From the NCBI GenBank assembly GCA_963833095.1, contig CAWHWQ010000004.1, positions 206,702 to 270,701 of the forward strand: a stretch of 64,000 bases of DNA. The letters run 5' to 3'. The notes below the pieces were generated by a model. It did not search any database. It saw only the letters and a program-made list of their open reading frames with translations, and had not been told where the DNA came from. Numbering within the stretch: position 1 is the first letter of the stretch; every line of letters begins with the position of its first letter. This document shows positions 510 through 59,249 of this stretch, piece by piece. The position numbers were made by a program, and so were the translations under genes. The DNA is from Vulcanimicrobiota bacterium (GTDB taxonomy: Bacteria > Vulcanimicrobiota > Vulcanimicrobiia > Vulcanimicrobiales > Vulcanimicrobiaceae).

Positions 510-1646
510 ATGCGCGTGGAATGTAGCGACTGCGGCGCGGTCGCCGACCCCCTGGAGATCTGCCGGTGCGGCGGGTTGCCCGAGTTCGTGCTCGAGCCGC
601 TGCGCCTCGACCCAGTCGGCCTGCGCCGCCTCGTGCGCGAGCGCCGCGCCAGCTACGAACCGCTCTTCGCCTCGGGCGTCTGGCGCTGGCGCGAACTGCT
701 GCCCGCGATCCCGGCCGACTCGATCGTGTCGCTGGCCGAAGGCAACGTCCCGCTCTACGCCTCCGAGTCGGGCGCGCGCTACGCCGGCGTCGATCGCCTG
801 GCCTATCTGCACCTCGGCATGAACCCGACCGGCTCGTTCAAGGATCTGGGCATGACGGTTGCGATCTCGGCCGCCAAAGCGTCGGGTGCGCGCGGCGTGG
901 TCTGCGCCAGCACCGGCAACACCGCCTCATCGATGGCCGCCTACGCGGCGCGCGCCGGACTCGACGCGTATGCGATCGTCCCGCGCGGTCGCGTTAGCGA
1001 TGCCAAGCTCGCGCAGATGCGTGAGTACGGCGCACAGTTGATCGAAGTCGACGGTTCGTTCGACGACGCGTTCGCGTCGCTCCAACTGGTCAGCGATGCG
1101 GCGGTGGTGAACTCGGTCAACGCCTATCGCATCGAAGGTCAGAAGTGCGCGGCCTTCGCGATCCTCGAAGCGCGCGGCTGGGATGTCCCCGACTGGGTCG
1201 TGCTGCCCGGCGGGAACCTCGGCAACATCTCGGCGATTTCCAAAGGTTTCCGCGAAGCGTTACAACTCGGCTTGATCGACAAGCTCCCGCGCCTCGCGCT
1301 GGTGCGCGCGTCACTCGGCGTCGCCACGACCGCTAGCGCGATCGCGGTCGGCAATCCGAAATCGCGCAACCGCGCCTCGCGCGCGCTCGATCGTTTCAAC
1401 GGCGTCGAACTCGCGGTCAGCGACGAGGCGATCCTCGATGCCAAAGCCCACATCGGGCGCGAAGGCATTGGCTGCGAACCGGCTTCGGCCGCGTCGCTGG
1501 CCGGCGCGCGTCGACTGCGCGAATGCGGCAAGATCGCGCCCGACGCCGACGTCGTCGCGATTCTCACCGGCCACATCCTCAAAGATGCACGCCCTTCGAG
1601 GCTCCCTTCGGTCGCACCTCAGGATGACAACTATGCAGTTGCGTGA
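510..1646 (+). CDS. thrC: threonine synthase
   Basis: NPTGSFKD PLP-lysine motif, CASTGNT, VNSVNAYRIEGQK, CEPASAA; RBS GGAG upstream. Confidence 0.95.
   Translation: MRVECSDCGAVADPLEICRCGGLPEFVLEPLRLDPVGLRRLVRERRASYEPLFASGVWRWRELLPAIPADSIVSLAEGNVPLYASESGARYAGVDRLAYLHLGMNPTGSFKDLGMTVAISAAKASGARGVVCASTGNTASSMAAYAARAGLDAYAIVPRGRVSDAKLAQMREYGAQLIEVDGSFDDAFASLQLVSDAAVVNSVNAYRIEGQKCAAFAILEARGWDVPDWVVLPGGNLGNISAISKGFREALQLGLIDKLPRLALVRASLGVATTASAIAVGNPKSRNRASRALDRFNGVELAVSDEAILDAKAHIGREGIGCEPASAASLAGARRLRECGKIAPDADVVAILTGHILKDARPSRLPSVAPQDDNYAVA
1592..1629 (-). repeat. TGTCA-type palindromic repeat inside the thrC 3' end
   Basis: Reverse complement reads TGTCATCCTGAGGTGCGACCGAAGGGAGCCTCGAAGGG; translated as PSRLPSVAPQDD. 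Confidence 0.8.
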
Positions 1647-2545
1647 TCGCTTCGTCGTCAGTGTTCCCGCCACCAGCGCCAATCTCGGGCCGGGCTTCGA
1701 TTGTGTCGGCATCGCGCTCGACCTGCGCGCCCGCGCGATGGTCGAACCCGCGAAACGGCTTCTCGCTCGAATTCAGCGGCCCGGAACAACCCACGCACAT
1801 CGGGTTCGAACGGATGATCATCGACGCGATGCACACGATCAGCAGCGAGCTGCCGCGCGTGCGCGTACACCTCAACAATGCGATTCCGCTGGGCAAGGGC
1901 GTGGGCTCCAGCGCCGCCGCAAGCGCGCTCGGCATCACCATCGCCGCGCGTGCCTACGGCCTCGAGCTCTCTCGTGACGACATCGCGGATCGCGTGTGCG
2001 CGCTCGAGGGCCATCCCGATAACGCGCTGCCCGCCGTCTACGGCGGCATCGTGATCGCCACCTCGGCACGCGCCAGCATCAAACTCCCCGCGCCGCGCGA
2101 TTTACACGCGATCGTCGTCGTGCCCGAGTTCGATCTTGCAACCGAAAAAGCGCGCGCACTGCTTCCGATCCAGTACGATCGCCGCGACGTCGTCTTCAAC
2201 ATTCAGCGCGCGGCGCTGCTCGGCGCCGCACTCGCCTCGGGCAACTGGAACCTGCTGCGCGAAGCGATGAACGACCGCTTCCACCAGCCCTATCGGGGCG
2301 AGGTCGTGCCCGGACTGGCCGACGCACTGCGCGTCGATTCACCCGAACTGATCGGCATCGCGCTCTCGGGCGCGGGGCCCAGCGTGCTAGCCATCGTCCG
2401 CGACCGTGCCGCGTGGCGCCCCATCGCCGCCCGCATCGCCGCTTGCTTCGAAGCCGCCGGCATCGCCGCCCGGAGCTACCGCCTGCCCTTCGCCGCGCGC
2501 GGCCTAGTTTCGCGCCGGCACTTGACGGAGCGCAAAGCGGCATGA
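1633..2545 (+). CDS. thrB: homoserine kinase, one apparent frameshift near 1757
   Basis: VPATSANLGPGFD in one frame; IPLGKGVGSSAAA, EGHPDN and LSGAGPS in the next. Confidence 0.92.
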
Positions 2546-2551
2546 TAGCCT
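2522..2551 (+). promoter_or_regulatory. promoter of the hom-met leader, inside the thrB 3' end
   Basis: TTGACG (2522-2527), 18 nt spacer, TGa-TAGCCT (2546-2551); leader ATG follows after 7 nt. Confidence 0.55.
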
Positions 2552-2558
2552 ACCCGAA

Positions 2559-2642
2559 ATGTTCGCGCCCACCATGATGACCTGTTCCATGTGCATTATT
2601 CAAATGAATAAGGCGGGGACTGTCATTGGGAGCACCGTGTAA
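2559..2642 (+). CDS. putative leader peptide MFAPTMMTCSMCIIQMNKAGTVIGSTV
   Basis: 27-aa ORF with 5 Met, 4 Thr, 3 Ile and 2 Cys upstream of hom-metY-metX, followed by a terminator. Confidence 0.75.
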   Translation: MFAPTMMTCSMCIIQMNKAGTVIGSTV

Positions 2643-2666
2643 AACACGGAATCGAGAAAGCACCAA

Positions 2667-2706
2667 AACGACGCCTCCGCCGATACGACGGGGGCGTCGT
2701 TCTTTT
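2667..2706 (+). terminator. attenuator terminator upstream of hom
   Basis: AACGACGCCTCCG...CGGGGGCGTCGTT-CTTTT; GGCGGGGAC at 2612-2620 can pair with its 5' arm as an antiterminator. Confidence 0.8.
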
Positions 2707-2731
2707 ACTCGGAGCTCAAAGGGAAACCATC

Positions 2732-3856
2732 ATGGACTGTACGGTTGGAATCGGATTACTCGGATGCGGCACGGTCGGCGCGTCGGTCGCGCAGCGTCTG
2801 CTCTCCGAGCGCGACGCGATCGAGCGGCGCAGCGGCGTGCGCTACAAACTCCAGGCGATCGCCATCGCCAATCCGTTAAAAGCCCGCCCGGCCGAAATCG
2901 ATCCGGCGCTCTTCACGAAGAACGCGCGCGCCGTCATCGACGATCCGCGCGTCGATCTGATCGTCGAAGCGATCGGCGGCACCCACGACGCCTCCGAACT
3001 GCTCGAATACGCGCTCGAACGCGGCCGCACGGTCGTGACCGCCAACAAAGATCTCATCGCGACGCAAGGCCCGCGCCTCTTTGCCCTGGCCCATTCGCGC
3101 GGTGCGCGCTTGCGCTACGAAGCCGCCGCCTGCGGGGCGATTCCGGTGATCCGCGTGCTCGACGACGCGCTCGCCGGCGATTACGTTCACGCCTTCGGCG
3201 GCGTGGTCAACGGCACGTGCACCTACATTCTCTCGCAGATGGAACGCGGCGAAGAGTACGACGTCGCGCTGCGCCGCGCACAAGAACTGGGCTTTGCCGA
3301 AGTCGATCCGACCAGCGACGTCGAGGGCCTCGACGCCGCGCACAAACTCGCACTGCTCATGCAGCTCGCGTTTCAAATGGCGGTGATCTCGCCGCGCTTA
3401 CGCCGCAGCGGCATCAGCGGGGTGAGCAAACGCGACGTGGCCCGCGCGCAAATGCTCGGCTATCGCATTCGCCTGGTCGCCGCCGCCACACGCAACGGCA
3501 ACGTTGCCAGCGGCGAAGTCGCCCCGGTGCTCGTACCCGAAGCGCATCCGTTTGCGCAGGCCAGCGGACCCGAAAACGTCGTGCGCGTCGTCTCGCGCGA
3601 TGCGGGTGCGCTGCTGCTCTCCGGCACCGGCGCCGGCGGTTTTCCCACCGCGTCGGCGGTGCTCGGCGACGTGGTCACGGCGCTGCGCGACATCGCCAAT
3701 CAGCGCGCGGTGAATTACCCCGCGCTCAATCCCGCGCTCGATATCGCACCGCTGTTTGCGAACCTCGCGCGCCATCCCGAACTCCCACGCTATCCGGTGT
3801 GGGATGACTCGCTCCTCGAAGCTCCGGTCTCGCAGGTTGAAACTGCGTTCTCATGA
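2732..3856 (+). CDS. hom: homoserine dehydrogenase, no obvious C-terminal ACT domain
   Basis: GCGTVG Rossmann motif, VVTANK, YEAA.CGAIP, NGTCTYIL, DVEGLDAAHKL, GAGGFPTASAV. Confidence 0.95.
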   Translation: MDCTVGIGLLGCGTVGASVAQRLLSERDAIERRSGVRYKLQAIAIANPLKARPAEIDPALFTKNARAVIDDPRVDLIVEAIGGTHDASELLEYALERGRTVVTANKDLIATQGPRLFALAHSRGARLRYEAAACGAIPVIRVLDDALAGDYVHAFGGVVNGTCTYILSQMERGEEYDVALRRAQELGFAEVDPTSDVEGLDAAHKLALLMQLAFQMAVISPRLRRSGISGVSKRDVARAQMLGYRIRLVAAATRNGNVASGEVAPVLVPEAHPFAQASGPENVVRVVSRDAGALLLSGTGAGGFPTASAVLGDVVTALRDIANQRAVNYPALNPALDIAPLFANLARHPELPRYPVWDDSLLEAPVSQVETAFS

Positions 3857-6157
<2,301 letters not shown>

Positions 6158-6266
6158 GCATCCAATGGCCGGTGAGCGTTTTGAAACGCTTCTTGCGCCT
6201 TACGACCTATTTCCGGGCCGCCTTCCACGTGGGAATGATGATATACTCGTCCCACAAGGAGCCTGC

Positions 6267-6671
6267 GTGAGCGCCGAACCCCTCGAAAGCCGGATAGCCC
6301 GTATGGAGGGCGTCAACGTCCAGATCGCCGATCGCCTGAACAGCATCGACGGGCGGCTTGATTCGCTCGACGGCCGTATCGACTCACTCGATCGTAGCTT
6401 ACGATCCGAGATTGGCGGAGTTCGCTCCGAGTTCGGCACCCTGCGCTCCGAGTTCGGCACCCTGCGCTCCGAGATGAATTCTCGCTTCACGCAGATCGAC
6501 GGTCGCTTTACGCAAATCGATGGGCGCTTTACACAAATCGACGGGCGCTTTTTGCAGATCGACGGCCGCTTCGCACAGATGGACCAAAAATTCACTTGGG
6601 TCATCGGCATTGTCGTGGCGTCTTGGACGACGAGCATGACGGCAACGCTGGCGCTATTCTTCCGCCACTGA
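6267..6671 (+). CDS. heptad-repeat coiled-coil protein with C-terminal TM anchor
   Basis: AAGGAG RBS before GTG; RSEFGTL x2 and QIDGRF x4 from 21-nt tandem repeats; hydrophobic C-terminus. Confidence 0.8.
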   Translation: MSAEPLESRIARMEGVNVQIADRLNSIDGRLDSLDGRIDSLDRSLRSEIGGVRSEFGTLRSEFGTLRSEMNSRFTQIDGRFTQIDGRFTQIDGRFLQIDGRFAQMDQKFTWVIGIVVASWTTSMTATLALFFRH

Positions 6672-6775
6672 GCGGTCGCGAGTTCGCGCATTTGTGTTGC
6701 ATTTACCCATTGTTGCAATAGTGGGGGAGCGCAACCCCCCAAGCTAAAAGCGTAAAGCATAGCTCTGCATGTGAG

Positions 6776-8734: not shown

Positions 8735-8827
8735 CGTGCGCATCGTGATCGTCGTCGCGACCATGCGCTCATTGCTACGGTAACTGCGCGCTGGGCGAGA
8801 ATCCGCCCTGCTTTCTCTTCTATTACA

Positions 8828-10150: not shown

Positions 10151-10215
10151 GCCCCCATCCTAGCACTACGATTTACGAGCGCAATAGGTACTAAAAGTGT
10201 GCTATTTTGGAGTCT

Positions 10216-12842: not shown

Positions 12843-12876
12843 GACGTCACCTCATGTCACAACCACTTCTACGCGG

Positions 12877-13722: not shown

Positions 13723-13807
13723 GATTCGTTAGATCCTCGAACCTCCATCGAACGCTGTCCTAGACGACCGCCGCCGGGCCCAGTCTGCCCGCGCTATCCT
13801 CAAATGC

Positions 13808-15157: not shown

Positions 15158-15158
15158 C

Positions 15159-16738: not shown

Positions 16739-16742
16739 GCCG

Positions 16743-17291: not shown

Positions 17292-17399
17292 GCTACCCAG
17301 ATCAGCCTCGACGCGGCCAATGCTGTCCTAGACAGGCATCAGTATTGACGCCGGTTATCACCTATGCTCGAAGTCCAGGACAACCTGGACAGGTGTCTT

Positions 17400-18281: not shown

Positions 18282-18287
18282 CCGCAG

Positions 18288-18780: not shown

Positions 18781-19920
18781 CTAGCGCTCGTACAGCCAAC
18801 GTTTGATCGCGGCCGCAACAAGGATGTGCTCGATTGGATGCAGGCGCGACAAGAGTGCCTCTTCATCTTCGCCCGCCATTACCTGCAGCGGCTTGCGCGT
18901 CAGCACGCGTCCGCGGTCCGTCTGCGCAGTCACCTCGTGCACGCTTGCGCCGCTCCACGCGCTGCCGGCCGCAAGCGTATCGCGCACCGCGCGTGCTCCG
19001 CGAAATGCCGGGACGACCGTTCCGTCAGGCATGCCGACGCGATCCCGTGACGGGTCAAGCGGCAAGAACGACGGATGCACGTTGAGCATTTCGGGAAATG
19101 CGTCGACAAACGCCGGTTCGAGCAAATGCATCCATCCAAGCAATAACACCAGCTGCGGTTCGAACCGTGCGACCGCGCCGCGCAGCAGAGCATCGTACTG
19201 CGAGCGAGACTGGTCGCCGCGCTGCCAGGGCAGCGCGATCGCCGGAATCCCGGCGGCTTTGGCCCGTTCGATCGCGTAGGCGCCCGGCTTGTTGCAGACC
19301 AGCGCCGCGAGGTCCAGCGGCAGGCCGCCGGCGACACGATCGATCACCGCTTGAAAATTCGTCCCGCTTCCCGAAGCCAGCACGACCGTGCGAACCGGAG
19401 CCGGCGTAAGACTGCGCGGATCGTAGCGTTCGACAACGCGCGCTCCGGCGTGCCGCTCGTAGTACGGTACCAAACCCTCCGACGTCGCGGCGATCAGCGC
19501 GCGCCGATATCCACGCGCGCGCAACCCGCACAACGCCACCTGCAACAACGAAGAGCCTAAACTGTCACCCTGAGGTGCGAAGCCTCGAAGGGTCGGCTCA
19601 ACACCCAACGGACCGAAGATGCCGACATCCGGTTCGCGCGCGATTCCGCGCAGCCATGCGTAGCGCAGGCCCGTCGGATCGAACGCCGCAAAGCCGGCCG
19701 GTTTCCCGTCACGCATTGCAACCGCAGACTGCGCAACCGCGACTTCGCTGCTCCACGCGCCGCCGAAGACGTCATCGATCCATGCCAGTACCGGATCGCT
19801 TGCGCCGCCGGCAACATCGAGCGAGTATCCGGCACGTTCGACGCGTTCGCGCGCAGCGCCGTCGCCCGCGAAACGTTCGTCGAGATCGACGGCGAGATTA
19901 ACGAGCTTCGTGGATGACAA
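18781..19920 (-). CDS. purN: GNAT domain fused to phosphoribosylglycinamide formyltransferase
   Basis: C-terminal LASGSGTNFQA, LGWM.LL, NVHPSFLP, GASVH.V...DRG; N-terminal FGPLGV...G..LL..AL..L...GY...YYER. Confidence 0.88.
   Translation of the reverse strand: MSSTKLVNLAVDLDERFAGDGAARERVERAGYSLDVAGGASDPVLAWIDDVFGGAWSSEVAVAQSAVAMRDGKPAGFAAFDPTGLRYAWLRGIAREPDVGIFGPLGVEPTLRGFAPQGDSLGSSLLQVALCGLRARGYRRALIAATSEGLVPYYERHAGARVVERYDPRSLTPAPVRTVVLASGSGTNFQAVIDRVAGGLPLDLAALVCNKPGAYAIERAKAAGIPAIALPWQRGDQSRSQYDALLRGAVARFEPQLVLLLGWMHLLEPAFVDAFPEMLNVHPSFLPLDPSRDRVGMPDGTVVPAFRGARAVRDTLAAGSAWSGASVHEVTAQTDRGRVLTRKPLQVMAGEDEEALLSRLHPIEHILVAAAIKRWLYER
19563..19592 (+). repeat. 30-bp palindromic repeat in frame inside GNAT-purN
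   Basis: TGTCACCCTGAGGTGCGAAGCCTCGAAGGG, identical to 58517-58546; read on the minus strand as LRGFAPQGD. Confidence 0.88.
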
Positions 19921-20931
19921 CTTGCGGCTCGCTGCCCTCGCGCGCTTCGATCCAGCCGATGACTTTCGCGCCCGGCGCCGCCGCCGCGGCTTTGGCAGCG
20001 TCGACGAACGGCACGATCAGCGTGTATCCGACGCCCATGTTCAACGTGCGGTACTTTTCCTCGTGGGTCAAAGTGCCGCGGCGCACCAGTTCTTGCATGA
20101 TTGGCGGCACGCTCCAACGCGCTGCCTCGAAGATGGCTTTCGCGCTATCAGGCAGCGTTCGCGGCACGTTCTCGAGCAGGCCACCGCCGGTGATGTGCGA
20201 CATCGTCTTGACGCGCGCGACCTTCTGAATCGCCCGGACCTCGTCGTAGTACGAAGGGTGCGGCGCAAGCAACGCATCGGCAAACGTTGTTCCGTTGAAG
20301 GGCTTGGTCCATTCATCGCGGCGGAATCAGCGCGCGCGCAAGCGAGTAGCCGTTAGTGTGCAGCCCGATCGAGGGCAATCCGATGATTGCATCGCCGGCG
20401 CTCGACGCTCTTGGGCTTCGGAATCTCGTCAATGTCCACGATCCCGACGATCGTTCCGGCCAGATCGAAATGCCCCGGTGCGTATAATCCCGGCATCTCG
20501 GCCGTTTCACCGCCAAGCAGCGCGCATTCGTGGGCGCGGCATGCCTGCGCGCAGCCCGCGACTACCTCGGCGGCAACCGCTGGGTCGAGTTTTCCGACCG
20601 CAAAATAGTCGAGAAAGAACATCGGTGTCGCGTTTACGACGAGGATATCGTTGACGCAATGATTGACGAGATCGCGCCCGACGCCGTCGTAGCGCTGCAG
20701 TTCGGCGGCGATGAGAATCTTCGTGCCGACACCGTCGGCCGACGCGACCAGCGCACGGTCGCCCCCGCCGGGCAAGCGGAAAAGCCGCCGAAGCCGCCGA
20801 TCGCGTCGAGCTGATCGGGATGCCGCCACGCGCCCAGGACCTCGCTTGTAGCGCGCGACGGCCTCGTTGCCCGCGGCAATATCGACGCCGGCGCGCGCGT
20901 AGGCGTCTTCCGTGCGACTTTGGTCGCTCAT
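19898..20931 (-). CDS. purM: AIR synthase, several apparent indels
   Basis: YARAGVDI, DGVGTK, VNDIL, GGETAEMPG, GLHTNGYSL, HITGGG, LNMGVG spread over several frames. Confidence 0.9.
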
Positions 20932-21029: not shown

Positions 21030-22569
<1,540 letters not shown>

Positions 22570-22588
<19 letters not shown>

Positions 22589-22842
22589 CCCATGTCATCC
22601 CGAGCGTAGTCGAGGGACCGTTACCCATCTCCGGCAACGCGGCGCGTTCACCCGCATATTTGTCATCCCGAGCGTAGTGGGTGAACGCGAAGCGTTCACC
22701 CGCGTAGTCGAGGGACCGTTACCCATCTCCGGCAACGCGGCGCGTTCACCCGCATATTTGTCATCCCGAGCGTAGTGGGTGAACGCGAGGCGTTCACCCG
22801 CGTAGTCGAGGGACCGTTACCCATCTCCGGCAACGCGGCGCG
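22570..22842 (+). repeat. tandem array of three repeat units with nested hairpins
   Basis: TGTCATCCCGAGCGTAG at 22593, 22661 and 22759 (spacing 68 and 98 bp); identical linker; GGGTGAACGC..GCGTTCACCC insert in units 2 and 3. Confidence 0.9.
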
Positions 22843-23263: not shown

Positions 23264-23300
23264 TGTCATCCCGAGCGCAGCGAAGCGGAGTCGAGGGACC
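23264..23300 (+). repeat. palindromic repeat copy
   Basis: TGTCATCCCGAGCGCAGCGAAGCGGAGTCGAGGGACC. Confidence 0.85.
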
Positions 23301-29986: not shown

Positions 29987-30038
29987 GGCTCTTGTAGATA
30001 ACCTCCTTGCGGCCTTCGGGTTACACGTTTACGTCCCC

Positions 30039-30075
30039 GTCACCCTGAGGTGCCCGCGAAGCGGGCCTCGAAGGG
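30039..30075 (+). repeat. palindromic repeat abutting an SOS promoter
   Basis: GTCACCCTGAGGTGCCCGCGAAGCGGGCCTCGAAGGG. Confidence 0.85.
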
Positions 30076-31005: not shown

Positions 31006-31064
31006 TGTCATCCCGAGCGTACGTGGGTGAACGCTATGCGTTCACCCACGTAGTCGAGGGACCG
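31006..31064 (+). repeat. palindromic repeat with nested hairpin
   Basis: TGTCATCCCGAGCGT-ACGTGGGTGAACGC-tat-GCGTTCACCCACGT-AGTCGAGGGACC. Confidence 0.88.
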
Positions 31065-42213: not shown

Positions 42214-42214
42214 C

Positions 42215-47498: not shown

Positions 47499-47887
47499 TT
47501 CGGGAAAATAGCCCTTTCAATGGCGGGATTGCAGAGAAGGCGTTCCGCGGCCTGCGCAAGCACGGTCGCGTTCGCAGGCGCACCCGAAGCGCCGAAGAGA
47601 CGCCAGCCGACGGGCCGCTCGGCATCATCTTGCACGATCCAGACTTCACCGGGCCGCGGCGCATCCTCATCGAGCACGGTGACGCGGTGCTTGTTGGGAT
47701 TGTAGAGTGATTCGTCGCGTTCGATCTGCGCGATCAACGCCTTGGGCTCGGGCGCGTCCGCGACACGAACGATCTCGCAGCGCTCGACACCGGCGACCTC
47801 GACGCCAAGGCGCCGCAGGGTGACAAGCGCGGTGTACGCCGCGTTGTCGGGTATCTTGAGGTTGATGGCGATGGCGCGGTGACTCAC
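47495..47887 (-). CDS. purS: atypical long PurS-like subunit
   Basis: Directly after purQ; LKIPD..A, YNPNKH, C-terminal LLCNPAIE. Confidence 0.7.
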   Translation of the reverse strand: MSHRAIAINLKIPDNAAYTALVTLRRLGVEVAGVERCEIVRVADAPEPKALIAQIERDESLYNPNKHRVTVLDEDAPRPGEVWIVQDDAERPVGWRLFGASGAPANATVLAQAAERLLCNPAIERAIFPK

Positions 47888-50915: not shown

Positions 50916-52101
50916 GCGACGCTCCCGGCGGGCCGCTTTGCTGCTGCAGCCCGGCGTCCGCGTGCAGCACGGCAGATCGCGCGTTGGCTTGCATCAAGAG
51001 CGTGCGGCCATAGAGCACCGTATCGTCGAGCGCCAAGAGCTTCGAGCACTGCAGCGCAAGCGCGGCGCTGTCGCCGCTCCATCCAATGACCGGTGCCGAC
51101 GAGGCCGCGTCGAGCATATCGCGCAGCACATCGTCGCCGACGGCAACGAAGAACAACCGCGCAAAGGTCGCTTCGAGCTGTTGCACGACTTGCAGCACGA
51201 AACCCGGCGTGCGCGCGGGGCTGGCGATATGGCGAATCGTCGGCAGGCCCAGCGACTGCAGCGTCGCCGCCACGGTATTGAGCGCTTCGCCCCGTTCGGG
51301 TCCATCGGCGACGATCGCCGCCATCCCCGGTCGCATCACCGGAAACGTTCCGACCAGATCGGCGACTTCTTCGTATGCCGCTTTGACGGTAGCGAGCGCC
51401 GCGTCATCGACGGTCTCCAGATTGCGATAGAGCTGCTTGTCGAGCATCCGGTCTTCGCGGCCCTGCGGCCAAATGCGCCACGAGTCGTTGTCGATCACGT
51501 CGGCTATAACGAGTTGTCCTTTTTCGTTTCCGGCCGTCAAGCGCCCGAACTCGACCTTGAGGTCGACCAGCAGCACATCCCGGCGGCGCCAGGCGTGCGA
51601 AAGAATATCGAAGGTGAGGCGCGCGAGCTCACTCATCGCCCCAACTTCTGCGGGCGTTGCCATGCCGCGCGCAACGATCTCGTCGGGCGCGATCTGCGGA
51701 TCGTGATTCGCGTCGTCCTTGACGAAGAACTCGATCACGCGCGGGACGAGCAACATACCGCGGGTGACTCCCGGATTGCGCCGCACAAACGATCCCGCGG
51801 CGACGCCGCGCACCACGACTTCGAGCGGCAACATATTGCAGCGCCGCACGAGCATCTCATTGTTGTCGTCGTCTTCGCCGCCGCTCAAATAATGCGTCGG
51901 CAGACCGCATAAGTTGAGCAACCGGAAAACCCGCGCCGTCGTCTGCGCCGCAAGACGTCCTTTGCCGGCGATCTCATTGCGCCGCGCACCATCGCCTGCC
52001 GAGATCGCATCCGTCTGCGCAACCACAAGCTGATCGGGATGCCCAGGATTCTCGTAGAGAATCTTGGTCTTGCCCGAGGCAATCTCCACGCCTTTATTCA
52101 T
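50908..52101 (-). CDS. purC: SAICAR synthetase with degenerate C-terminal PurE-like domain
   Basis: GKTK, LEVVVR..A.GS, DLKVEFG, LVIADVIDNDSWRIW, LDKQ.YR; extra C-terminal ~140 aa. Confidence 0.9.
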   Translation of the reverse strand: MNKGVEIASGKTKILYENPGHPDQLVVAQTDAISAGDGARRNEIAGKGRLAAQTTARVFRLLNLCGLPTHYLSGGEDDDNNEMLVRRCNMLPLEVVVRGVAAGSFVRRNPGVTRGMLLVPRVIEFFVKDDANHDPQIAPDEIVARGMATPAEVGAMSELARLTFDILSHAWRRRDVLLVDLKVEFGRLTAGNEKGQLVIADVIDNDSWRIWPQGREDRMLDKQLYRNLETVDDAALATVKAAYEEVADLVGTFPVMRPGMAAIVADGPERGEALNTVAATLQSLGLPTIRHIASPARTPGFVLQVVQQLEATFARLFFVAVGDDVLRDMLDAASSAPVIGWSGDSAALALQCSKLLALDDTVLYGRTLLMQANARSAVLHADAGLQQQSGPPGASLG

Positions 52102-52105
52102 GCTT

Positions 52106-52452
52106 TGTCATCCCGAGCGTAGCTTCCCCATTTGTCATCCCGAGCGTAGGCGCGAAGCGCCGTAGTCGAGGGACCGGCGCAGCCCTGTTGTTGCCGAGCG
52201 AAGGCTCGAAGTTTTGCGCCATTCGCAGGATGCGAACTTCGTTTGGACGTGGCGCAAAACTCGCGCAGCAGGAGCGGCACACGAGGTGCCGCGAGGAGCG
52301 TCTTCGCGGGCAGCAACAGGGTTGCGCCGGTCCCTCGACTACGCTCACTGCGTTCGCTACGCTCGGGATGACAACCGGTCCCTCGACTACGCTCACTGCG
52401 TTCGCTACGCTCGGTGATGACAACCGGTCCCTCGACTACGCTCGGGAGGACA
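52106..52452. repeat. composite inverted repeat cluster between purB and purC
   Basis: Two forward copies (52106, 52133) and three reverse copies (52328-52452); long inverted arms; inner GTTTTGCGCCA/TGGCGCAAAAC stem. Confidence 0.9.
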
Positions 52453-52456
52453 AGGT

Positions 52457-53872
52457 TCATACTTCTACCTTCTTCTGCTTGGGAAACTCAGCCAACGCGT
52501 CGATGCGATCGGCCAGCGCGCGGGCGCGTTGCGGTGCGGTGCCGACGTGTTTGCCCGGATCGAGCAACCGCCGGATCTCGGCCGGGTCGAGCAGCGCCGT
52601 TAGACTGGCGTCGCCGGCGAGCGTTTGCGCGAGCGGATTATCTTGGCCGCGTGCAAGTGCGGCCCAGGCTTCCATCGCGGCTTCGCGGATTCGTTCGTGC
52701 AGCACCTGACGATCGCCGCCGGCGCGCGCCGCTTCCATCATCACCGCTTCGGTTCCGGCGAAGGGCCCGTACACGCGCAGATTGTGCGCGATCCGGCGTT
52801 CCTCGACGCGCAGGCCGTCGATCACTTTGCGCGCGAGGGTGACGATTTCGTCGGCACACAGAATCGCCTCGGGAAGAATCGTCCGCCGATTGGCGCTGTC
52901 GTCGAGGGTGCGCTCCAAATAATTTGTCGCGGCATTCTGCCATGCGACGTCGCTGTAGCTCACCAGAAGGCGCGCCAGCGAGTCAATGCGCTCGCACAGA
53001 ATGGGATTGCGCTTGAAGGGCATCGCCGAACTGCCGACTTGGGAGCGTCCGAAGGGCTCAGCGAGTTCGCCGAATTCGGGGCTACTGAGAATGCGCACGT
53101 CGGCGGCGAATTTTGAAAGCGACGCGCCGAGTCCGGCAAGTCCGCTGAGCAGCAAGTAGTCGAGTTTGCGCGGATAGGTCTGGGTGCTCACGTCGCGCGC
53201 GCGCAGACCGAACTGCTCGAGGACGTGCTCTTCGAACATCGCCGAGGTGCCCTGGTGGTCCAGCAGATGCTCGTACGACGCTGCTGTCCCGACCGCGCCG
53301 CGCAGCCCTTTGGTAGTGAGCTGGTCGAAGACGAAGCGCAGGTTGGTATCGTCGATCAAACAGTCTTGCGCGTAAACGCCGAGCCGATAGCCGAGCGTCG
53401 TCGGCTCGGCCGGCTGCAAATGGGTAAACGCCATGCAAACCAAATCGGCGTACTGTCGTATCTTCGCGGCAAAGCTCTGCAACAGGCCATGGAGATTCGC
53501 GCCCACCGCGGCCAAGCCCAAACGCAGCCGGTACGTCTCGACCGTGTCCTCGATATCCATCGAGGTCGCTCCAAGATGCAGTTTTCCACCACCGACCTTC
53601 GCCTGCGAGGCAAAGACGCGAATTTCGGCCATCAGATCGTGGTGAATCTCCCGCTCGATGGCCAGCGCCGCCTCGATGTCGACTTCGTGCGCGTGCGCGC
53701 GCAGGTCGGAGACTTCGGCGTCGGTGATCAGCCCGGCGCGCGCCTGCGCCTGCGCGAGCGCAACCCAGACCGCACGCCAAAGTTTACGGCGTTCTTCCTC
53801 GGAAAAGAGCGTGCGTAGCTCGGCGCTGCCGTATCTCCAAGAGAACGGCGAGGCGTACGTACGATAATTCAT
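52457..53872 (-). CDS. purB: adenylosuccinate lyase
   Basis: SPFSWRY, HLGATS, THLQPA, GSSAMPFKRNP, LERTLDDSA. Confidence 0.96.
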   Translation of the reverse strand: MNYRTYASPFSWRYGSAELRTLFSEEERRKLWRAVWVALAQAQARAGLITDAEVSDLRAHAHEVDIEAALAIEREIHHDLMAEIRVFASQAKVGGGKLHLGATSMDIEDTVETYRLRLGLAAVGANLHGLLQSFAAKIRQYADLVCMAFTHLQPAEPTTLGYRLGVYAQDCLIDDTNLRFVFDQLTTKGLRGAVGTAASYEHLLDHQGTSAMFEEHVLEQFGLRARDVSTQTYPRKLDYLLLSGLAGLGASLSKFAADVRILSSPEFGELAEPFGRSQVGSSAMPFKRNPILCERIDSLARLLVSYSDVAWQNAATNYLERTLDDSANRRTILPEAILCADEIVTLARKVIDGLRVEERRIAHNLRVYGPFAGTEAVMMEAARAGGDRQVLHERIREAAMEAWAALARGQDNPLAQTLAGDASLTALLDPAEIRRLLDPGKHVGTAPQRARALADRIDALAEFPKQKKVEV

Positions 53873-53898
53873 GGGACGAAGGCGCTCTTCGCCTCCGC

Positions 53899-56043
53899 CT
53901 AGAGCGCTGCCTCGTCGCCTTTGGTCGGAGCGTCGGGGGGCGCGGCGCGACGCGCGAAGTCTTCCAGCTCGACCGTAACGTGCTCGGGAGTTCCCGCGTC
54001 GATCGCGCGCAGTGCCGCCGCGCGGCCGGCCTCATCCACAAAGTGCCGTAGCTGCTCCTCGGTCATCCCAGCGGTCCGCGCTTCGAGGTCGTCCAGCGCT
54101 GCGGAAAGGTCGAAGCCCAGCGGTTTGCCGTCGAGCAGCGCATGCAGCGCATCACGGCGAGCCTGCGGCGTCAATTCGGTCAAATCCACGAATTCGGGGA
54201 ACCGGTTGCGCAATTCCGGGTCGATCGTGGCCGCGTCGAGCGTCTCGCCCACGATAAAGAGCGGCTCCTTGTACTGGGTCAGCCGATCGATCGTCACCGC
54301 GAGGTGCGCGATCGACCCGGGATCGCCGTACGCCGGGATCTCCACCACCACGATCGCGTGAGCGCTCGCTCGCGCCCGATCGAGCGCTTCATCGAGCGCA
54401 TCGATGTTGGCCGGAATCACCGGCAAGCCGGTCTGATCGGCCAAGCTCTTGATCGCGCTCATACGCGCGTCGGCCGACGGGCCGGCGATAAGCACCGCCC
54501 GCGGTACGGTGATGCCCTGCGACTCCATCGTCGCCACATGGGCGAACATTGCGGCCAGCATGCGCGTGCGCTTTTGCACCGGCTCGGGCAGATCGTTGTC
54601 GATTGCCTCGAGCGGAATCTGCGCCACCGCTTCGGCGTCCTCGGTGTCGATGGGAACCGTCGCGGCTCCCGCGCCGAACGTGGGCGGTACGAGATCGACC
54701 ACCGCGCCGAAGCGCGCGATGATCCCTTCGTCGAGGCCCTCGTGCGTCGCCGCGCCGGCGATCACCCACACGTCTTCTCGTCCTTCGAGCTGCTCCCACT
54801 CGCTCCAAAGTGCTTGCACGACTTCCTTGCGCATCGCTTCGTACGCGGCCGAACCCGTCGTGGTAAAGAACCGCTCCGCTTCGTCAATAAAGATGATGGA
54901 GCGCGCGCGTTTTGCGGTTGCGAAGATACGCGAAACCGTGGCTGCGCCCTGACCGACGTATCCGATCTTGATCTGCGAGAACGACAGATGCAGCAGCGTC
55001 GCGGCCGACGCGCGCGAAATCGCCTGCATGACGTCGGTCAGATCGATGCGCTCGCCGCTCTGAATGAAGAGCCCGCGCCGGATCGCCGGATCACCGAGCC
55101 GGAAAAGAACGATTTGACGGATCAACTGGTTGCGAACGGTCGCGGGCAGAGCCAGAGCTTTGACGATCGCCGCCGTGGCGTCGTATTCACGCAGCTCTTC
55201 TTCCATCCGCCGAACGCGTTCGTCGAGGTCCTTGCGCGCGCCCGAGTGTGCGACGATCTCGCGATATTCCGTGGCTTGCGTGGCGACTTGCGGCAAGTGG
55301 CGCTCGAGCGCGCGTTGGAAGAATACACCGTACGACCGAATGAACGGATTTTCGAGATCGGCGTGTACGAGCGTCGGCTTCCTATCCGGAAAGCGCGTGA
55401 GGAGCACGTTGCTGCGCCGCTCGTCGATAACCTCGACGAAGGTTTCATCCAGCGCGTCTTTCTCTCGCACGCCTGGGATTTTCCACGCGCGATCCTCGAG
55501 CACGCCGTCGATCGGACCGTCGTATCCGATCAGCGGATGATTGAGGCCCGGTTCATACCGCGTGAACGCGACAAAGCGAACGTCTTTACCGTCGCTGCCC
55601 AAATACGAGGCGCGCGCCTTCTTTATCGGTGCGAGGCATTGCTCGCGCGCGATGAAGTAGCCAATGAACGCAAGCGCCAGGTAGAGCGCGATCGCGAGGA
55701 GCAGTCCGCTGGCTTGGAGCGCGTAGATCATGCCGGCCGCAACCACCACGAATCCGCCGACGGCGAAGAGCTGATAGGGTCCGGTCCAGCCCAGCAATAG
55801 GGCCTGGGAGATGGTGTCGCGCTCGCGCATGCGTTGCTGTTGCCCGTAAACGTCGCGCCATGCCGCGCCGACCATCGTGTCGAGCGAGGCCCGAATGGCA
55901 GCAAGCCGCTCTCGATCTGCGGCAATCTGCCGATCGAGATCGTCGCGTTCGGCCCGTACGCGATCGACGTCGTCCTTAAGCCATTGCTTCGGGTCGACAT
56001 CGGGCGAGTCGGTCGGGGGTGGGTCGACGACGTCCATAACCAA
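53899..56043 (-). CDS. membrane-anchored tandem AAA+-like protein with degenerate Walker A motifs
   Basis: Two TM helices, GYVG pore loop, IIFIDEAE Walker B, LD..I..RF; no GxxxxGKT. Confidence 0.7.
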   Translation of the reverse strand: MVMDVVDPPPTDSPDVDPKQWLKDDVDRVRAERDDLDRQIAADRERLAAIRASLDTMVGAAWRDVYGQQQRMRERDTISQALLLGWTGPYQLFAVGGFVVVAAGMIYALQASGLLLAIALYLALAFIGYFIAREQCLAPIKKARASYLGSDGKDVRFVAFTRYEPGLNHPLIGYDGPIDGVLEDRAWKIPGVREKDALDETFVEVIDERRSNVLLTRFPDRKPTLVHADLENPFIRSYGVFFQRALERHLPQVATQATEYREIVAHSGARKDLDERVRRMEEELREYDATAAIVKALALPATVRNQLIRQIVLFRLGDPAIRRGLFIQSGERIDLTDVMQAISRASAATLLHLSFSQIKIGYVGQGAATVSRIFATAKRARSIIFIDEAERFFTTTGSAAYEAMRKEVVQALWSEWEQLEGREDVWVIAGAATHEGLDEGIIARFGAVVDLVPPTFGAGAATVPIDTEDAEAVAQIPLEAIDNDLPEPVQKRTRMLAAMFAHVATMESQGITVPRAVLIAGPSADARMSAIKSLADQTGLPVIPANIDALDEALDRARASAHAIVVVEIPAYGDPGSIAHLAVTIDRLTQYKEPLFIVGETLDAATIDPELRNRFPEFVDLTELTPQARRDALHALLDGKPLGFDLSAALDDLEARTAGMTEEQLRHFVDEAGRAAALRAIDAGTPEHVTVELEDFARRAAPPDAPTKGDEAAL

Positions 56044-56055
56044 AGTTATCGGCAG

Positions 56056-57042
56056 TTAGCGCCGACTCAAGCCGGAGAGTTCGGCGGTGATGCGTTCGAC
56101 GAGCGTGCGGTGATCGTCAGGATCGCTCCCGGCCGCACCCGTAACAATCGATTCGACGCCGTGAACGGCCCGTTCGTACGCGATCCGGGCGCGCCGTTCG
56201 CCGACCCTCCCCGCGATCGGCCGCAGGATGCGTTCGCGCCATTTGGCTCGCGCGGGAAGCTCCCCGCCGGGCCGGGCCAACTCCCAGAGCAGCCCGCATT
56301 CCGTCGCCAGCGCCGAGAGCAGCGGAATCGCGGCACCGCGCGGATCGTTTGCAAAAAACTCGTGGGCGATACCCAGAGCTTCGCCGACGCGTCCCTCGAC
56401 CAGCGCGCTTGCGTACCGGTAGGCCTTGGGATCCTCGATCGACAGCGACTCGCCCTCGAGGTCTTTGTAGGTAATTTTCTTGCCCGCAAGCGAGAGTTTT
56501 TCGAGGTCGTTGCGCACGCTAGCCAGATCGGCTTCGCTGCGCGCAAGCTCGCTGCGGACGCGCGGCTCTGCGCTTGCGCCCAGCGCCACCAACACTTCGT
56601 CGACGTAGCGGGCCCGCGTCTCTTCATTCGCGGTCGTATCGATGCGCAGCGCGGCGCGACCGGCCTGCGCGCCCAGCGGCTGCGGTCGCTGCGAGCGCGG
56701 CGAAAGCAAATCGAGCACAACGAGCGTGTTGCCGTCGGGAACCGATTCCATGACTTCAAAGAGATCGCGTCGCGGTTGCGCGCGCAGCGTCTGTGCGTCG
56801 CTCACCACGACCACGCGCCGATCGGCAAGAAACGGCATTGCCGAAACCGCTTCGCGCGCGCGCGTAGCGTCGTTCCACTCCGATGCGGCGATACGCTCGA
56901 GATTGAGCTCCCGCATGTCGGACGGGAGTACGCGATCGAGAAGAACCTCGAGCGCGCGCTCCGCCAGCGCGCGCTCGGTGCCTTCGATGACCACCAGATT
57001 GCCGATCTTCGGCGCTTTATCAATGAACTCGTAGAATTTCAC
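56056..57042 (-). CDS. holA: DNA polymerase III delta subunit
   Basis: G.E..L, MPFLADRRVVVV, NDLEKL. Confidence 0.8.
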   Translation of the reverse strand: MKFYEFIDKAPKIGNLVVIEGTERALAERALEVLLDRVLPSDMRELNLERIAASEWNDATRAREAVSAMPFLADRRVVVVSDAQTLRAQPRRDLFEVMESVPDGNTLVVLDLLSPRSQRPQPLGAQAGRAALRIDTTANEETRARYVDEVLVALGASAEPRVRSELARSEADLASVRNDLEKLSLAGKKITYKDLEGESLSIEDPKAYRYASALVEGRVGEALGIAHEFFANDPRGAAIPLLSALATECGLLWELARPGGELPARAKWRERILRPIAGRVGERRARIAYERAVHGVESIVTGAAGSDPDDHRTLVERITAELSGLSRR

Positions 57043-57052
57043 GAGGAGTATT

Positions 57053-58078
57053 TCACGTTACGAATGCGCTCGCGTTCGGACGCAATTCCAGCGCCGGGAT
57101 CGCTTCGTAATACGGCGCGCGAATCACGCCGTACTCCGTCACGAAAGCCGTGACGAGGTGTCCGGGCGTAACATCGAATGCCGGATTAAACACGTGCGCG
57201 CCCGCCGGCGCGACCGCCGTGCCGCCGAACGCGGTCACCTCGCTTGCCGCGCGCTCTTCGATCTGAATCGACGCGCCCGATTCGATGCTGAAGTCGAACG
57301 TCGAGCGCGGCGCTGCGACATAGAACGGAATGCCGTGGTGCGCAGCTAGAATCGCAAGGCCGTAGGTACCGATTTTATTAGCCGTATCGCCGTTGCGCGC
57401 GATGCGATCGGCGCCGACGATCACAAGGTCGATGTTTTTTCGCGCCATTGCGAGGGCGGCAGCGCCGTCGACCTGCAGCGTCGCGTCGACGCCCGCCTGC
57501 GCAAGCTCGAAATAGGTCAAGCGCGCGCCTTGCAACAGCGGGCGTGTCTCGTCGACAAAAACGTGCGGATGCTTCCCGGCGCGCTGCGCCGCGATGATCA
57601 CACCCAGCGCCGTCCCACCGCCGGCGGTCGCGATGGGTCCGGTATTGCAATGGGTGAGGATCCGGGCGCCCTTGGGGATCAGGTCGAGGCCGGCATCGGC
57701 TATCGCGACGTCCATCGCGAGCTGCTCGCGGTGAATAGAGCGCGCTTCGGACTGCATGTCATCGGCGGCGAGCACGCGGTCGACCGCCCACGCGAGGTTC
57801 ACGGCCGTCGGACGCGCATCGCGGATGCGCCGCGCGGCCGCATGAAATTCTTCGTCGCTAGCCAGGGCGTCGCGCAACATCGCCACGCCGTACGCTCCAA
57901 AAACGCCGATAGCCGGAGCGCCGCGAACCGCCAGCGTCTTGATCGCCTCTTCGATATCGTCGACGGTGCGTGCGCGCTTGCGTTCGATCGCATGCGGAAT
58001 CAGCCGCTGATCGACATAGGTCAACGCCTCGCCGTCGAAAGCGACGGCTGAGAGTTCATCCGGAGAGGGGGTGGCCAT
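57053..58078 (-). CDS. mtnA: methylthioribose-1-phosphate isomerase
   Basis: DQR.IP, VRGAPAIG, RPTAVNL, THCNTG, ETRPLLQGARLT, ANKIGTY. Confidence 0.95.
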   Translation of the reverse strand: MATPSPDELSAVAFDGEALTYVDQRLIPHAIERKRARTVDDIEEAIKTLAVRGAPAIGVFGAYGVAMLRDALASDEEFHAAARRIRDARPTAVNLAWAVDRVLAADDMQSEARSIHREQLAMDVAIADAGLDLIPKGARILTHCNTGPIATAGGGTALGVIIAAQRAGKHPHVFVDETRPLLQGARLTYFELAQAGVDATLQVDGAAALAMARKNIDLVIVGADRIARNGDTANKIGTYGLAILAAHHGIPFYVAAPRSTFDFSIESGASIQIEERAASEVTAFGGTAVAPAGAHVFNPAFDVTPGHLVTAFVTEYGVIRAPYYEAIPALELRPNASAFVT

Positions 58079-58107
58079 GGTGGGAATCCTTTCGGGATTC
58101 CCAGCCG

Positions 58108-58407
58108 TCAAACCCCGGCCGGAACTTGGGCGGTGTAACAGGTGCGGCAGTACACCGGCCGATCGCCGCGCGGGCGGAACGGGACCGTGGTGTTGACGCC
58201 GCACGAGGCACAGACGGCCTCGAAACTGGGACGAGCTCCAGACGGAGCGGGCGCGTGCTCGCCGTTCTGCGTCCTGCGCGCCTGACGGCATTCGCGGCAA
58301 CGCTGGGGTTGATTCTGAAAACCTTTTTCGGCAAAGAACTGCTGCTCGCGAGCGGTAAAGGCGAACTGGTTCCCACAGTCCTTGCACGTGATCATCTTGT
58401 CTTCCAC
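58108..58407 (-). CDS. zinc-ribbon + CxxC-x17-CxxC protein (paralog of 36409)
   Basis: CKDC..F.F...EQQFF..KGF..QPQRCREC...CASC...VPFRPRGDRPVYCRTC. Confidence 0.92.
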   Translation of the reverse strand: MEDKMITCKDCGNQFAFTAREQQFFAEKGFQNQPQRCRECRQARRTQNGEHAPAPSGARPSFEAVCASCGVNTTVPFRPRGDRPVYCRTCYTAQVPAGV

Positions 58408-58460
58408 AGGGTCGGAGCCTCCGGAGCTAATCTACCGTTAAGGCCTGGTAAAGTGCTACT

Positions 58461-59249
58461 TTGGTAAGCGCGCTCCCTCCCAGGACAGAGCGATTCCCCA
58501 GCTCTTCTTCGCTCTCTGTCACCCTGAGGTGCGAAGCCTCGAAGGGTCTTAAAGTGATGATCCCATGGGTGCCCACGGTGGTCGTCGGCGACCGATTGCC
58601 GGCCAATCCGCAGTTGCTCGATCAGTCCGGCCGCGCGCTTCGCTGGAGCCAACTGAACGGTCGGGCCTTTGCCGTGACCTTCATCTACACGCGCTGCCGC
58701 GAGAGCGCCGAGTGCCCCGCGACATCGGCCAAGTTCGCACGGCTTCAGCACGAGATTCCCAGCAACGCGCGCCTGCTCGAGGTGACCATCGATCCGAGCT
58801 ACGATCGCCCCTCCGTCCTGCGTCGCTACGGTGCAATGTTCGGCGCCGATCCGGCTCGCTGGACGCTCGCCACCGGCGATCCGCAGACAGTGCTCACGCT
58901 CGCGAAGCGATTCAACGTGATCGTTTCACCCGGGCCGCGCGCGGGCCGGCTGGAACACGGCGAGGCGATCGCCGTGTTCGATACGCAAGAACGGCTCGTG
59001 TCTCTCACCGCCGGCAACAGCTGGCAGCCGCGTGAAATTCTCGCCGAATTGCAAACCGCGAGTGGCATGCGCGGCGGTTTGCTCGATCGATTCACGCTGT
59101 GGTTTCGCAATTTCGGGATTGCGTGCGGCGCCGTGCTGACCGTCGGCGATCGATTGTCGCGTCCGCTCGCTGGCCTGATTCTGGTCGCGCTGCTTGTCCT
59201 GATCGTGGGCGCGTCTGCCGTGCTGCTGCGCGGGCTGCGCGGGGTTTAG
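58461..59249 (+). CDS. SCO/SenC copper chaperone family (start uncertain, may be 58558)
   Basis: TFIYTRCRESAECP, TIDP.YD.P, W.LATG, EH; C-terminal TM. Confidence 0.82.
   Translation: MVSALPPRTERFPSSSSLSVTLRCEASKGLKVMIPWVPTVVVGDRLPANPQLLDQSGRALRWSQLNGRAFAVTFIYTRCRESAECPATSAKFARLQHEIPSNARLLEVTIDPSYDRPSVLRRYGAMFGADPARWTLATGDPQTVLTLAKRFNVIVSPGPRAGRLEHGEAIAVFDTQERLVSLTAGNSWQPREILAELQTASGMRGGLLDRFTLWFRNFGIACGAVLTVGDRLSRPLAGLILVALLVLIVGASAVLLRGLRGV
58517..58546 (+). repeat. palindromic repeat at or in the SCO 5' end
   Basis: Identical to 19563-19592. Confidence 0.88.

Follow-up and report, generated by a model that had tools for sequence, protein, structure and literature searches.

In-frame hairpin repeats in core enzymes of a Vulcanimicrobiota bacterium are probably Ssn-related motifs of a GIY-YIG nuclease element

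How can a palindromic repeat come to lie, translated and in frame, inside core metabolic enzymes, and what could move it there? The question is raised by a 64,000-nucleotide stretch of a Vulcanimicrobiota bacterium genome (assembly GCA_963833095.1, contig CAWHWQ010000004.1, positions 206,702 to 270,701), which we call the window and always take at its full length. A sequence-only reading of the window had described an imperfect hairpin repeat at 10 loci and proposed that it is a mobile element adding peptide loops to proteins. Here, the source genome that holds the window is labelled G000, its contigs are numbered in the style C1 to C8, and related genomes carry other G-numbers. We observed a large repeat family, in-frame insertions that differ in presence between related species, and an association of the repeat with a GIY-YIG nuclease gene that is both physical and seen at the level of whole genomes. 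We consider it probable that the repeats are Ssn-related hairpin motifs (SRM, of the kind known in Neisseria as NTS) belonging to a GIY-YIG nuclease element and surviving in frame inside genes. We infer that the nuclease would act on the motifs and drive their spread, and that the inserted peptides would be neutral passengers.

To count the repeat, we searched for the 12-mer TGTCAYCCYGAG with at most one mismatch, using 100 shuffles as the control. The window gave 16 matches, 13 of them exact, compared to 0.78 expected, and none of the 100 shuffles reached 16; all ten loci reported earlier were recovered. The match at 47814 (one mismatch) lacks the right arm, resembles native sequence and falls in an open reading frame (ORF) without a Pfam hit. 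Across the 2.8 Mb and 8 contigs of G000 the 12-mer occurs in 138 exact copies. In a unit, a variable middle separates the left arm, (cc)yTTGTCAYCCYGAG, from the right arm, TCGARGGRCCG, so that a non-palindromic YGTCAY tag is followed by the imperfect stem CCYGAG...TCGARGG, often with a variable inner hairpin. Both arms are exact in 99 units of G000, which we sorted into a major type (TGTCATCCCGAGCGTAG, an inner hairpin that is often GCGAAGC, then CGTAGTCGAGGGA; 75 units), a minor type (..CCTGAGGTGCG..GCCTCGAAGGG; 11 units), a short type (..GAGCTTGTCGAAGGG; 6 units) and 7 others. As had been noted, two copies 39 kb apart are identical, and the match between 19562-19594 and 58516-58548 extends over 33 nt. 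No Rfam family was found at gathering score in the window, where the long composite described below gave a chance-level match only, and in the literature we found no description of this hairpin repeat for Eremiobacterota or Acidobacteria.

The units are often arranged in inverted pairs, and two further arrangements are present in G000. Tandem arrays consist of left arms only, as in the ten 24-bp copies at C1:575957, and long-palindrome composites of 230-250 bp consist of two inverted units around a conserved 115-bp core (at least 5 full copies and one shorter variant). The description of the repeat as an imperfect hairpin applied weakly to single units and strongly to the composite. DNA folding of single units gave z-scores of -0.6, -0.56, -2.0, -1.8, +0.18 and +1.1 relative to shuffles, indicating that the hairpin of most single units is no more stable than that of shuffled sequence, with the exception of a unit with a long inner stem (z = -3.3). 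In contrast, the composite of the purC-purB spacer (52130-52376) is a very strong palindrome (-173.4 kcal/mol compared to -102.7 ± 5.1 kcal/mol for shuffles; z = -13.95). Apart from the insertion sequence (IS) described below and a region duplicated between C4 and C5, self-BLAST of the genome revealed no multi-copy element longer than about 1.2 kb. By a conservative and noisy codon-usage screen, which missed the GNAT-PurN and ThrC cases, 71 of the 99 units had no coding flank within 150 nt, 18 had one and 4 lay in frame between coding flanks. One match of this screen, in a Cys_Met_Meta_PP gene on C6, was rejected as probably native, since the Pfam match is full length without an insertion.

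One of the copies read in frame lies in MetX, where the peptide CHPELVEG falls between the conserved GSTGP and FPRISVRD motifs. Alignment of 16 orthologs from the genus demonstrated a clean in-frame insertion: seven carry the repeat in this loop, seven have a short repeat-free loop (STRPEQRV-like), and in two the loop is deleted. The repeat occupies the loop in at least four forms within the genus, namely the short type (G000, G003 and G014), the major type (G017 and G008), the minor type (G002) and, in G013, a reversed unit with tandem half-units. MetX of the sister order shows the canonical loop GPASPAADGRPYGSRFP, which is also that of solved MetX structures. The invariant columns Ser120, Asp258 and His286 are retained, and in the structure model (mean predicted local distance difference test score, pLDDT, 91.9) the insert is placed in a coil (pLDDT 77-84) and the repeat-coded C-terminus is disordered. 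This C-terminus ends within a second unit, at 6114, which supplies the metX stop codon as had been proposed (TAG 6128-6130). Read by eye from the DNA, metX in G009, G006 and G010 ends at an in-frame TAG at the equivalent left-arm position, while in G002 the frame appears to pass through the unit to a later TAG.

Translated copies were likewise confirmed in ThrC and in the GNAT-PurN fusion. The ThrC tail has a unit between LKDAR and (Y/H)AVA* in 9 of 12 genus orthologs, the repeat peptide of G000 being PSRLPSVAPQDD, and the three repeat-free tails read LKDAR-VSS-YAVA*. All nine units have the same orientation but differ in type (major, minor or short), and a second hot spot in ThrC contains repeat-coded peptides in three species. 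In GNAT-PurN, a unit forms a clean in-frame insertion in 3 of 15 orthologs (G000, where it is read as TLRGFAPQGD, G007 and G010), inside the R-x-x-G-x-G/A acetyl-CoA loop. The GNAT domain scores as Acetyltransf_1 with 22.9 bits in one ortholog, above the cut-off, and with 17.2 bits in G000. The fusion itself is confined to the genus, the PurN and GNAT-like parts matching at separate places in the genome in other families. The copy near SCO, which had been considered possibly translated, turned out to lie 5′ of the start codon, because the Met of ATG 58557 is where SCO orthologs start, and two of these have stops upstream of it.

In a tree of two proteins, G000 is sister to G002, followed by G009 and then G012. 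The sisters G000 and G002 differ at two sites, with the short compared to the minor subtype in the MetX loop and presence compared to absence of the unit in the ThrC tail, which indicates that, measured against the divergence of species, the turnover of copies is recent. Closely related species also differ in their state at DnaE (see below). The repeat may in this sense have been recently active, as judged from differences between species and not from observed movement. Instead of sharing the same peptides, which would have spoken against the proposal, orthologs within the genus lacked them or carried a different subtype at the same position. Thus, with the exception of SCO, the proposal of a mobile repeat that adds peptide loops is supported by the ortholog comparison and also by the GIY-YIG flanking reported below.

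An ORF-based screen followed by Pfam identified four further coding cases, one of them the Pol III alpha protein DnaE (C1:138199-141591). Here a whole 234-bp composite is translated as 78 aa between the DNA_pol3_alpha and finger domains, and alignment to Thermus aquaticus Pol III alpha places a 78-aa gap between residues 637 and 639. We relied on this alignment to a solved Pol III alpha since the structure model of the DnaE fragment was uninformative (mean pLDDT 42; predicted TM-score 0.30). Among 15 genus orthologs, the insert is not recognisable in seven. The composite is intact in G000 and G012, has an inverted core in G002, contains further nested units in G015, is trimmed to a single unit in G004 and survives as recognisable scraps in both G006 and G008. 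All 22 DnaE alleles, outgroups included, are open and in frame irrespective of how the insert has fared. At the same site in G013 (L210), an unrelated, near-perfect palindrome of about 170 bp is translated in frame instead. DnaE of the sister order carries CATCCCGAGC or CACCCCGAGCG (M/I-HPE) precisely at the insertion point, and G000 also has a second Pol III alpha-like gene at 38% identity, so that either of the two may be the replicase. Elsewhere in G000, a major unit adds about 16 residues to IleRS directly before WTTTPWT, a squalene/phytoene synthase gains about 9 residues from a unit, and a PMT_2 glycosyltransferase has a unit inside its domain. The pattern resembles that of Rickettsia palindromic elements (RPEs), in that the repeat is absent from orthologs, the frame is kept and the host gene looks functional.

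To find a candidate partner, we looked for a nuclease gene flanked by the repeat, which the sequence-only reading had suggested could be of the GIY-YIG or of the REP-associated tyrosine transposase (RAYT/HUH) kind. A GIY-YIG gene of 111 aa was found outside the window, on another contig of G000 (C2:304952-305284). Pfam GIY-YIG is the sole domain of the protein (E = 8.8e-15), and its best matches in the PDB are 1YWL and 1ZG2, UPF0213 proteins of about 100 aa. Three forward motif copies, of which two are full units and one is a left arm, face four inverted units across the gene, and one specific inner hairpin is common to the full units. A decayed second copy of the gene lies between minor-type units (C5:230509-230658).

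The association extends beyond G000. In a phylum sample of 121 genomes, with repeat-rich defined as at least 30 motif copies and a close homolog as E <= 1e-17, a close homolog was present in 24 of the 32 repeat-rich genomes compared to 2 of the 89 repeat-poor ones, counts that are phylogenetically non-independent, most genomes being from one family. At 22 of 30 GIY-YIG loci the motif lies within 450 bp on both flanks of the gene, at five it lies on one flank and at three on neither, and these three are distant homologs in repeat-poor genomes. The bracketing motifs are forward on one side and inverted on the other, regardless of the direction of the gene. The same layout was seen in an Acidobacteriaceae genome and in G094. 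The motif is likewise abundant in two genomes of Acidobacteriota (113 and 184 copies), compared to only 1-2 copies in three other tested genomes; its form in the Acidobacteriota is TGTCATCCTGAGCGAAGCGAAGGAYC, often in inverted pairs of about 80 bp, and tandem left arms occur too. A Neisseriaceae homolog of the G000 protein (33% identity; E = 3.2e-7) has the published NTS on both sides. In several genomes of the phylum sample, single-contig ones included, forward and reverse motif counts are strongly unequal (143/78, 91/37 and 200/88, for example), which hints at a strand or replication-direction bias.

The layout corresponds to that described in 2025 for Ssn enzymes, which are single-domain GIY-YIG (cd10448) nucleases that cut single-stranded DNA next to hairpin repeats, and whose ssn genes are flanked by SRM present in hundreds of copies (PMC11893778, as far as its available text goes). 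According to the same source, the SRM of Neisseria is the NTS CGTCATTCCCGCGMAVGCGGGAATCYRG, a longer form of dRS3 that also occurs in hundreds of copies, and in Neisseria the pair of NTS and SsnA, the Ssn enzyme of Neisseria meningitidis, modulates natural transformation. The present family shares with Ssn/SRM a single-domain GIY-YIG gene of about 100 aa bracketed by inverted hairpin repeats, repeats whose (C/T)GTCAT tag precedes a stem of the CCCG...CGGGA type, dispersed copies that number from tens to hundreds, co-occurrence of gene and repeat across genomes and a patchy distribution over phyla. It differs in the GA bulge of its stem and the frequent second, variable inner hairpin. Tandem left-arm arrays, 230-250-bp composites and in-frame coding copies are features that we did not see mentioned in the available text of PMC11893778, where the word "intragenic" appears 0 times.

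Likeness to the RPEs is found at the level of behaviour. Like RPEs, as covered in the accessible parts of PMC10969869 and PMC3733652, the repeats are in-frame palindromes translated in unrelated housekeeping genes, DnaE among them, and their presence differs between related species. Unlike RPEs, most of the units are 24-55 bp and add 8-18 aa, the composite alone (234 bp, 78 aa) being RPE-sized, the host belongs to a free-living soil phylum, and a candidate partner gene can be named. Repetitive extragenic palindromic sequences (REPs) with a CGTC tag form a class without an associated transposase (Di Nocera et al. 2013, PMC3733652), into which, in the portion of that paper available, RPE-4 and RPE-6 of R. 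conorii fall; both GTAG- and CGTC-tagged REPs are there reported inside ORFs, including polymerase and tRNA synthetase genes. The present units resemble the CGTC class as described there in being short stem-loops that carry an unpaired (C)GTC tag on one end and lack an associated transposase, in occurring as monomers, dimers and clusters, and in providing stop codons or lying inside ORFs in some cases. In contrast, their tag is mostly TGTC, and Acidobacteria and Eremiobacterota are not among the taxa listed for the family in that portion. We infer that the CGTC-tagged class would correspond to Ssn motifs, a correspondence that neither paper states in its available text. With REP and REPIN (REP doublets forming hairpins) systems moved by RAYT, and with IS200/IS605, the family shares hairpin repeats, inverted dimers, the lack of target duplication, a small nuclease gene that lies between copies of its own repeat and a postulated action on single-stranded DNA; unlike those systems, it has no Y1/HUH gene, the bracketed gene being GIY-YIG. 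In-frame palindromes (RPEs and CGTC-tagged REPs) and the Ssn nuclease/repeat layout were thus each already known, and we class the present family as a divergent group of Ssn-related motifs that behaves like RPEs.

In the mechanism we propose, the complete element would be the small single-domain GIY-YIG gene bracketed by inverted unit pairs, and the dispersed copies (solo units, left-arm tandem arrays and composites resembling MITEs, miniature transposable elements with inverted repeats) would be gene-less derivatives or target motifs of the nuclease. If it works as the characterised Ssn enzymes do, the nuclease would bind to the hairpin when the DNA is single-stranded and make its cut next to it, and copies could then be gained, lost or exchanged at cut or replicating sites. 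Selection would purge those copies that break genes, and the intragenic survivors would keep the frame, contain no stop and sit in loops or tails that tolerate them, being translated there as 8-78 extra residues. The nuclease activity of the G000 protein on the motifs is predicted from its likeness to Ssn enzymes.

Several observations weigh against this reading, in addition to the non-independence of the genome counts. Among the filled and empty site pairs examined, we saw neither a transposition event nor an excision product nor any duplication of the target site, and the spread of repeats by Ssn is itself put forward as a hypothesis only in the available text of PMC11893778. The published SRM pattern, HGTCWYN(0-2)YYVSBRHN(0-5)WNVSBRGN(0-2)RNCYNB, misses the family: it gave 16 genome hits compared to 21-27 in shuffled sequence and fits none of the 99 units exactly, 2 with one mismatch and 14 with two. 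Eight of the 32 repeat-rich genomes have no close GIY-YIG homolog, and the complete genus genomes G002 and G006 have repeats and in-frame insertions with no homolog at E <= 0.001. Agreement with the SRM pattern is restricted to the HGTCWY tag and the general hairpin layout. In Supplementary Data 4 of PMC11893778, SRM enrichment is about 1.1-1.7-fold in the 4 ssnA-bearing rows among the 5 Acidobacteria rows listed, which we take to mean that the cognate motif of this group is not captured by the published pattern.

Because the insertions are read from an assembly, it has to be asked whether assembly errors, a chimeric bin or pseudogenes make the repeats merely appear in frame. G000 has a completeness of 80.7% in 8 contigs, and frameshifts split thrB (1633-2545), metY (3881-5147), purM (19898-20931) and pepA (21216-22588); a 749-aa ORF at 3881-6130 is in fact two genes, metY, frameshifted near 4604-4606, and then metX from about 5174. 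In addition, about 23 kb of the window (38540-61703) has a collinear second copy, 85-95% identical, at the start of contig C5 (C5:1565-24756). This copy is without the purC-purB repeat cluster and without the SCO region, has breakpoints in common with G002 and probably represents another strain or species within the bin, not a true duplication. Among public sequencing runs, none contained half or more of the sequence words sampled, and one RNA run contained 5% of them. Contigs assembled from the short reads of four other public runs agree near-exactly with the window over kilobases, uncovered bins and repeat-induced joints in them being given no weight. They depart from it by single-base indels at 4604-4606 and 20322 and by one gap in 1347-2373, which indicates that the frameshifts are errors of the assembly consensus and do not mark pseudogenes. 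The indels thus identify the frameshifts, not the repeats, as errors, and the contigs span both the ThrC tail (1347-2373, 0 mismatches) and the GNAT insertion (19317-19922, 1 mismatch, 0 gaps). Since the same insertions are also found in independently assembled genomes, an artefactual origin of the repeats themselves is refuted, and we give it next to no weight. A classical REP/REPIN family moved by a RAYT (Y1 HUH) transposase would account for the frequent inverted unit pairs and for the one or two GTAG beside the inner hairpin of major-type units (at least two in 47 of 75), but the required partner is missing. PF01797 had no hit in G000, one marginal hit among 18 genus genomes and none in the repeat-rich G099 and G094, and where Y1 genes do exist (G050, G143 and G144) none of the 12 Y1 loci is flanked by the motif. 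The suggested RAYT/HUH partner was therefore not recovered in G000, and this explanation is largely refuted, a very small chance being left to it.

Two other explanations accept the repeats as real and differ on what keeps or moves them. The nuclease-motif pair could be a domesticated host system rather than a selfish one, serving the cell for instance in the control of DNA that is incoming or single-stranded, in termination or in mRNA stability, so that selection would maintain the motifs and the coding copies would be incidental. The role of NTS/SsnA in transformation of Neisseria (PMC11893778, available text) is a precedent; the mostly intergenic position of the copies (71 of the 99 units) and their frequent location directly after stop codons, as at 31006 and at the metX stop, would fit such functions. 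However, copies are found in intergenic regions of every kind, also where the neighbouring genes diverge (23264, 30038 and 58517), the distribution is so patchy that genera of one family range from 0 up to 288 copies, alleles decay in many ways, as in the DnaE series, and genomes with repeats but without the nuclease gene exist. We therefore regard domestication as unlikely while leaving it an appreciable minority chance. Spread and subtype switching could alternatively be enzyme-free, through hairpin-promoted template switching or gene conversion seeded at arm-like places. Several empty or outgroup sites do hold a piece of left arm, such as the SCO upstream region of G010 (TCTGTCATCCTGA), the region downstream of pepA in G002 (a lone left arm) and the sister-order DnaE (CATCCCGAGC/CACCCCGAGCG), sister species have different subtypes at one site (MetX in G000 and G002), and no target duplication was seen. 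These left-arm pieces could be homing seeds or equally deletion scars, and the sites are few and were chosen post hoc. The enzyme-free account also leaves the tight bracketing of the GIY-YIG gene unexplained, and, being compatible with nuclease-initiated repair, it is a refinement more than an exclusive rival; as an explanation by itself we find it improbable.

Other candidate mobilisers were tried and rejected. An IS3-like IS (rve domain) with ends TGACCTGAGGTGGC is present at G000:C2:331983-333177 and at C3:20-34 kb in several partly decayed copies, and a 90%-identical copy occurs in G142, a genome without the hairpin motif. The repeats are not MITEs of this IS, as its ends TGACCTGAGGTGGC have only CCTGAGGTG in common with the minor subtype, nor does the IS co-vary with them (present within the family in 16 of 30 repeat-rich compared to 10 of 15 repeat-poor genomes). 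A TnpB-like gene (Cas12f1-like_TNB, E = 2.4e-24; 438-aa open frame) at G000:C5:1-1435 has no repeats nearby, and DDE_Tnp_1 gave a single sub-threshold match. A loose-pattern search for genes bracketed by inverted arms returned mostly noise and one clean pair, around an ordinary TauE/SafE gene.

The loci of the window are collected in the table.

Table. Repeat units of the window and the genes they touch (positions are those of the window).
Feature	Position	Strand	Remark
thrC, PALP domain	510..1646	+	last 19 codons mostly repeat-derived
Minor-type unit TTGTCATCCTGAGGTGCG..CCTCGAAGGG	1592..1630	-	codes the ThrC C-terminal tail between LKDAR and YAVA*
metX, homoserine O-acetyltransferase	5174..6130	+	one unit in loop; stop codon from second unit
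Short-type unit TGTCACCCTGAGCTTGTCGAAGGG	5414..5437	+	read as CHPELVEG, MetX residues 81-88
Major-type unit	6114..6156	+	first GTAG gives the metX stop TAG 6128-6130
GNAT-PurN fusion gene	18781..19920	-	
Minor-type unit	19563..19592	+	minus-strand reading TLRGFAPQGD within the GNAT motif-A loop
Three intergenic major-type units 3′ of pepA	22593-22617, 22661-22715, 22759-22813	+	
Intergenic major-type unit	23264..23298	+	upstream of panB, neighbouring genes divergent
Intergenic minor-type unit, CGTCACCC variant	30038..30075	+	
Intergenic major-type unit with long inner hairpin	31006..31061	+	directly 3′ of a radical-SAM gene stop codon
purC-purB spacer cluster	52106..52452	.	lone left arm, composite and two further inverted units
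Minor-type unit	58517..58546	+	11 nt upstream of the SCO1/SenC start ATG 58557; untranslated

Some of the intergenic loci deserve comment. The last two units downstream of pepA make a tandem of about 98 bp (22661-22830) together with the spacer CGTTACCCATCTCCGGCAACGCGGCGCGTTCACCCGCATATT, which repeats half of the inner hairpin of its neighbouring major-type unit. Of the sites orthologous to the 30038 unit, that of G010 is filled and those of G009, G002 and G006 are empty. The purC-purB spacer comprises a left arm (52106-52117), the composite of about 245-247 nt at 52130-52376 (unit, 115-bp core and inverted unit) and the two further inverted units at about 52376-52416 and about 52428-52452. 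The orthologous spacer in G002 and on C5 of G000 contains a different element of 159 bp, with ends TTTGTCATCGCG...CGCGATGACAAA, that shares with the repeat family only the terminus TTGTCATC.

The analysis joins two literatures that are unconnected in the available text of PMC11893778, PMC10969869 and PMC3733652, namely translated palindromes in housekeeping proteins and pairs of Ssn nucleases with hairpin motifs. It also describes a divergent motif family, common to Eremiobacterota and Acidobacteriota, that the published search pattern misses. A broader proposal, tentative and in our view doubtful, is that Ssn-type GIY-YIG elements are the missing mobilisers of "transposase-less" (C/T)GTC-tagged palindromes, RPE-like coding insertions included, and that in these soil phyla the single-strand cut at the hairpin would allow copies to be written repeatedly into the same short arm-like sequences, such as His-Pro-Glu codons (CAYCCNGAG). 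If this were true, essential proteins such as DnaE, IleRS and MetX would acquire, swap and shed peptide loops at fixed hot spots. The orthologs provide natural series of alleles that show a peptide insertion arising, becoming inverted or nested, and being trimmed and erased with the frame kept, and DnaE, MetX and ThrC each show several states within one genus. Such series make it testable how far enzymes tolerate insertions and whether Ssn nucleases spread their own motifs.

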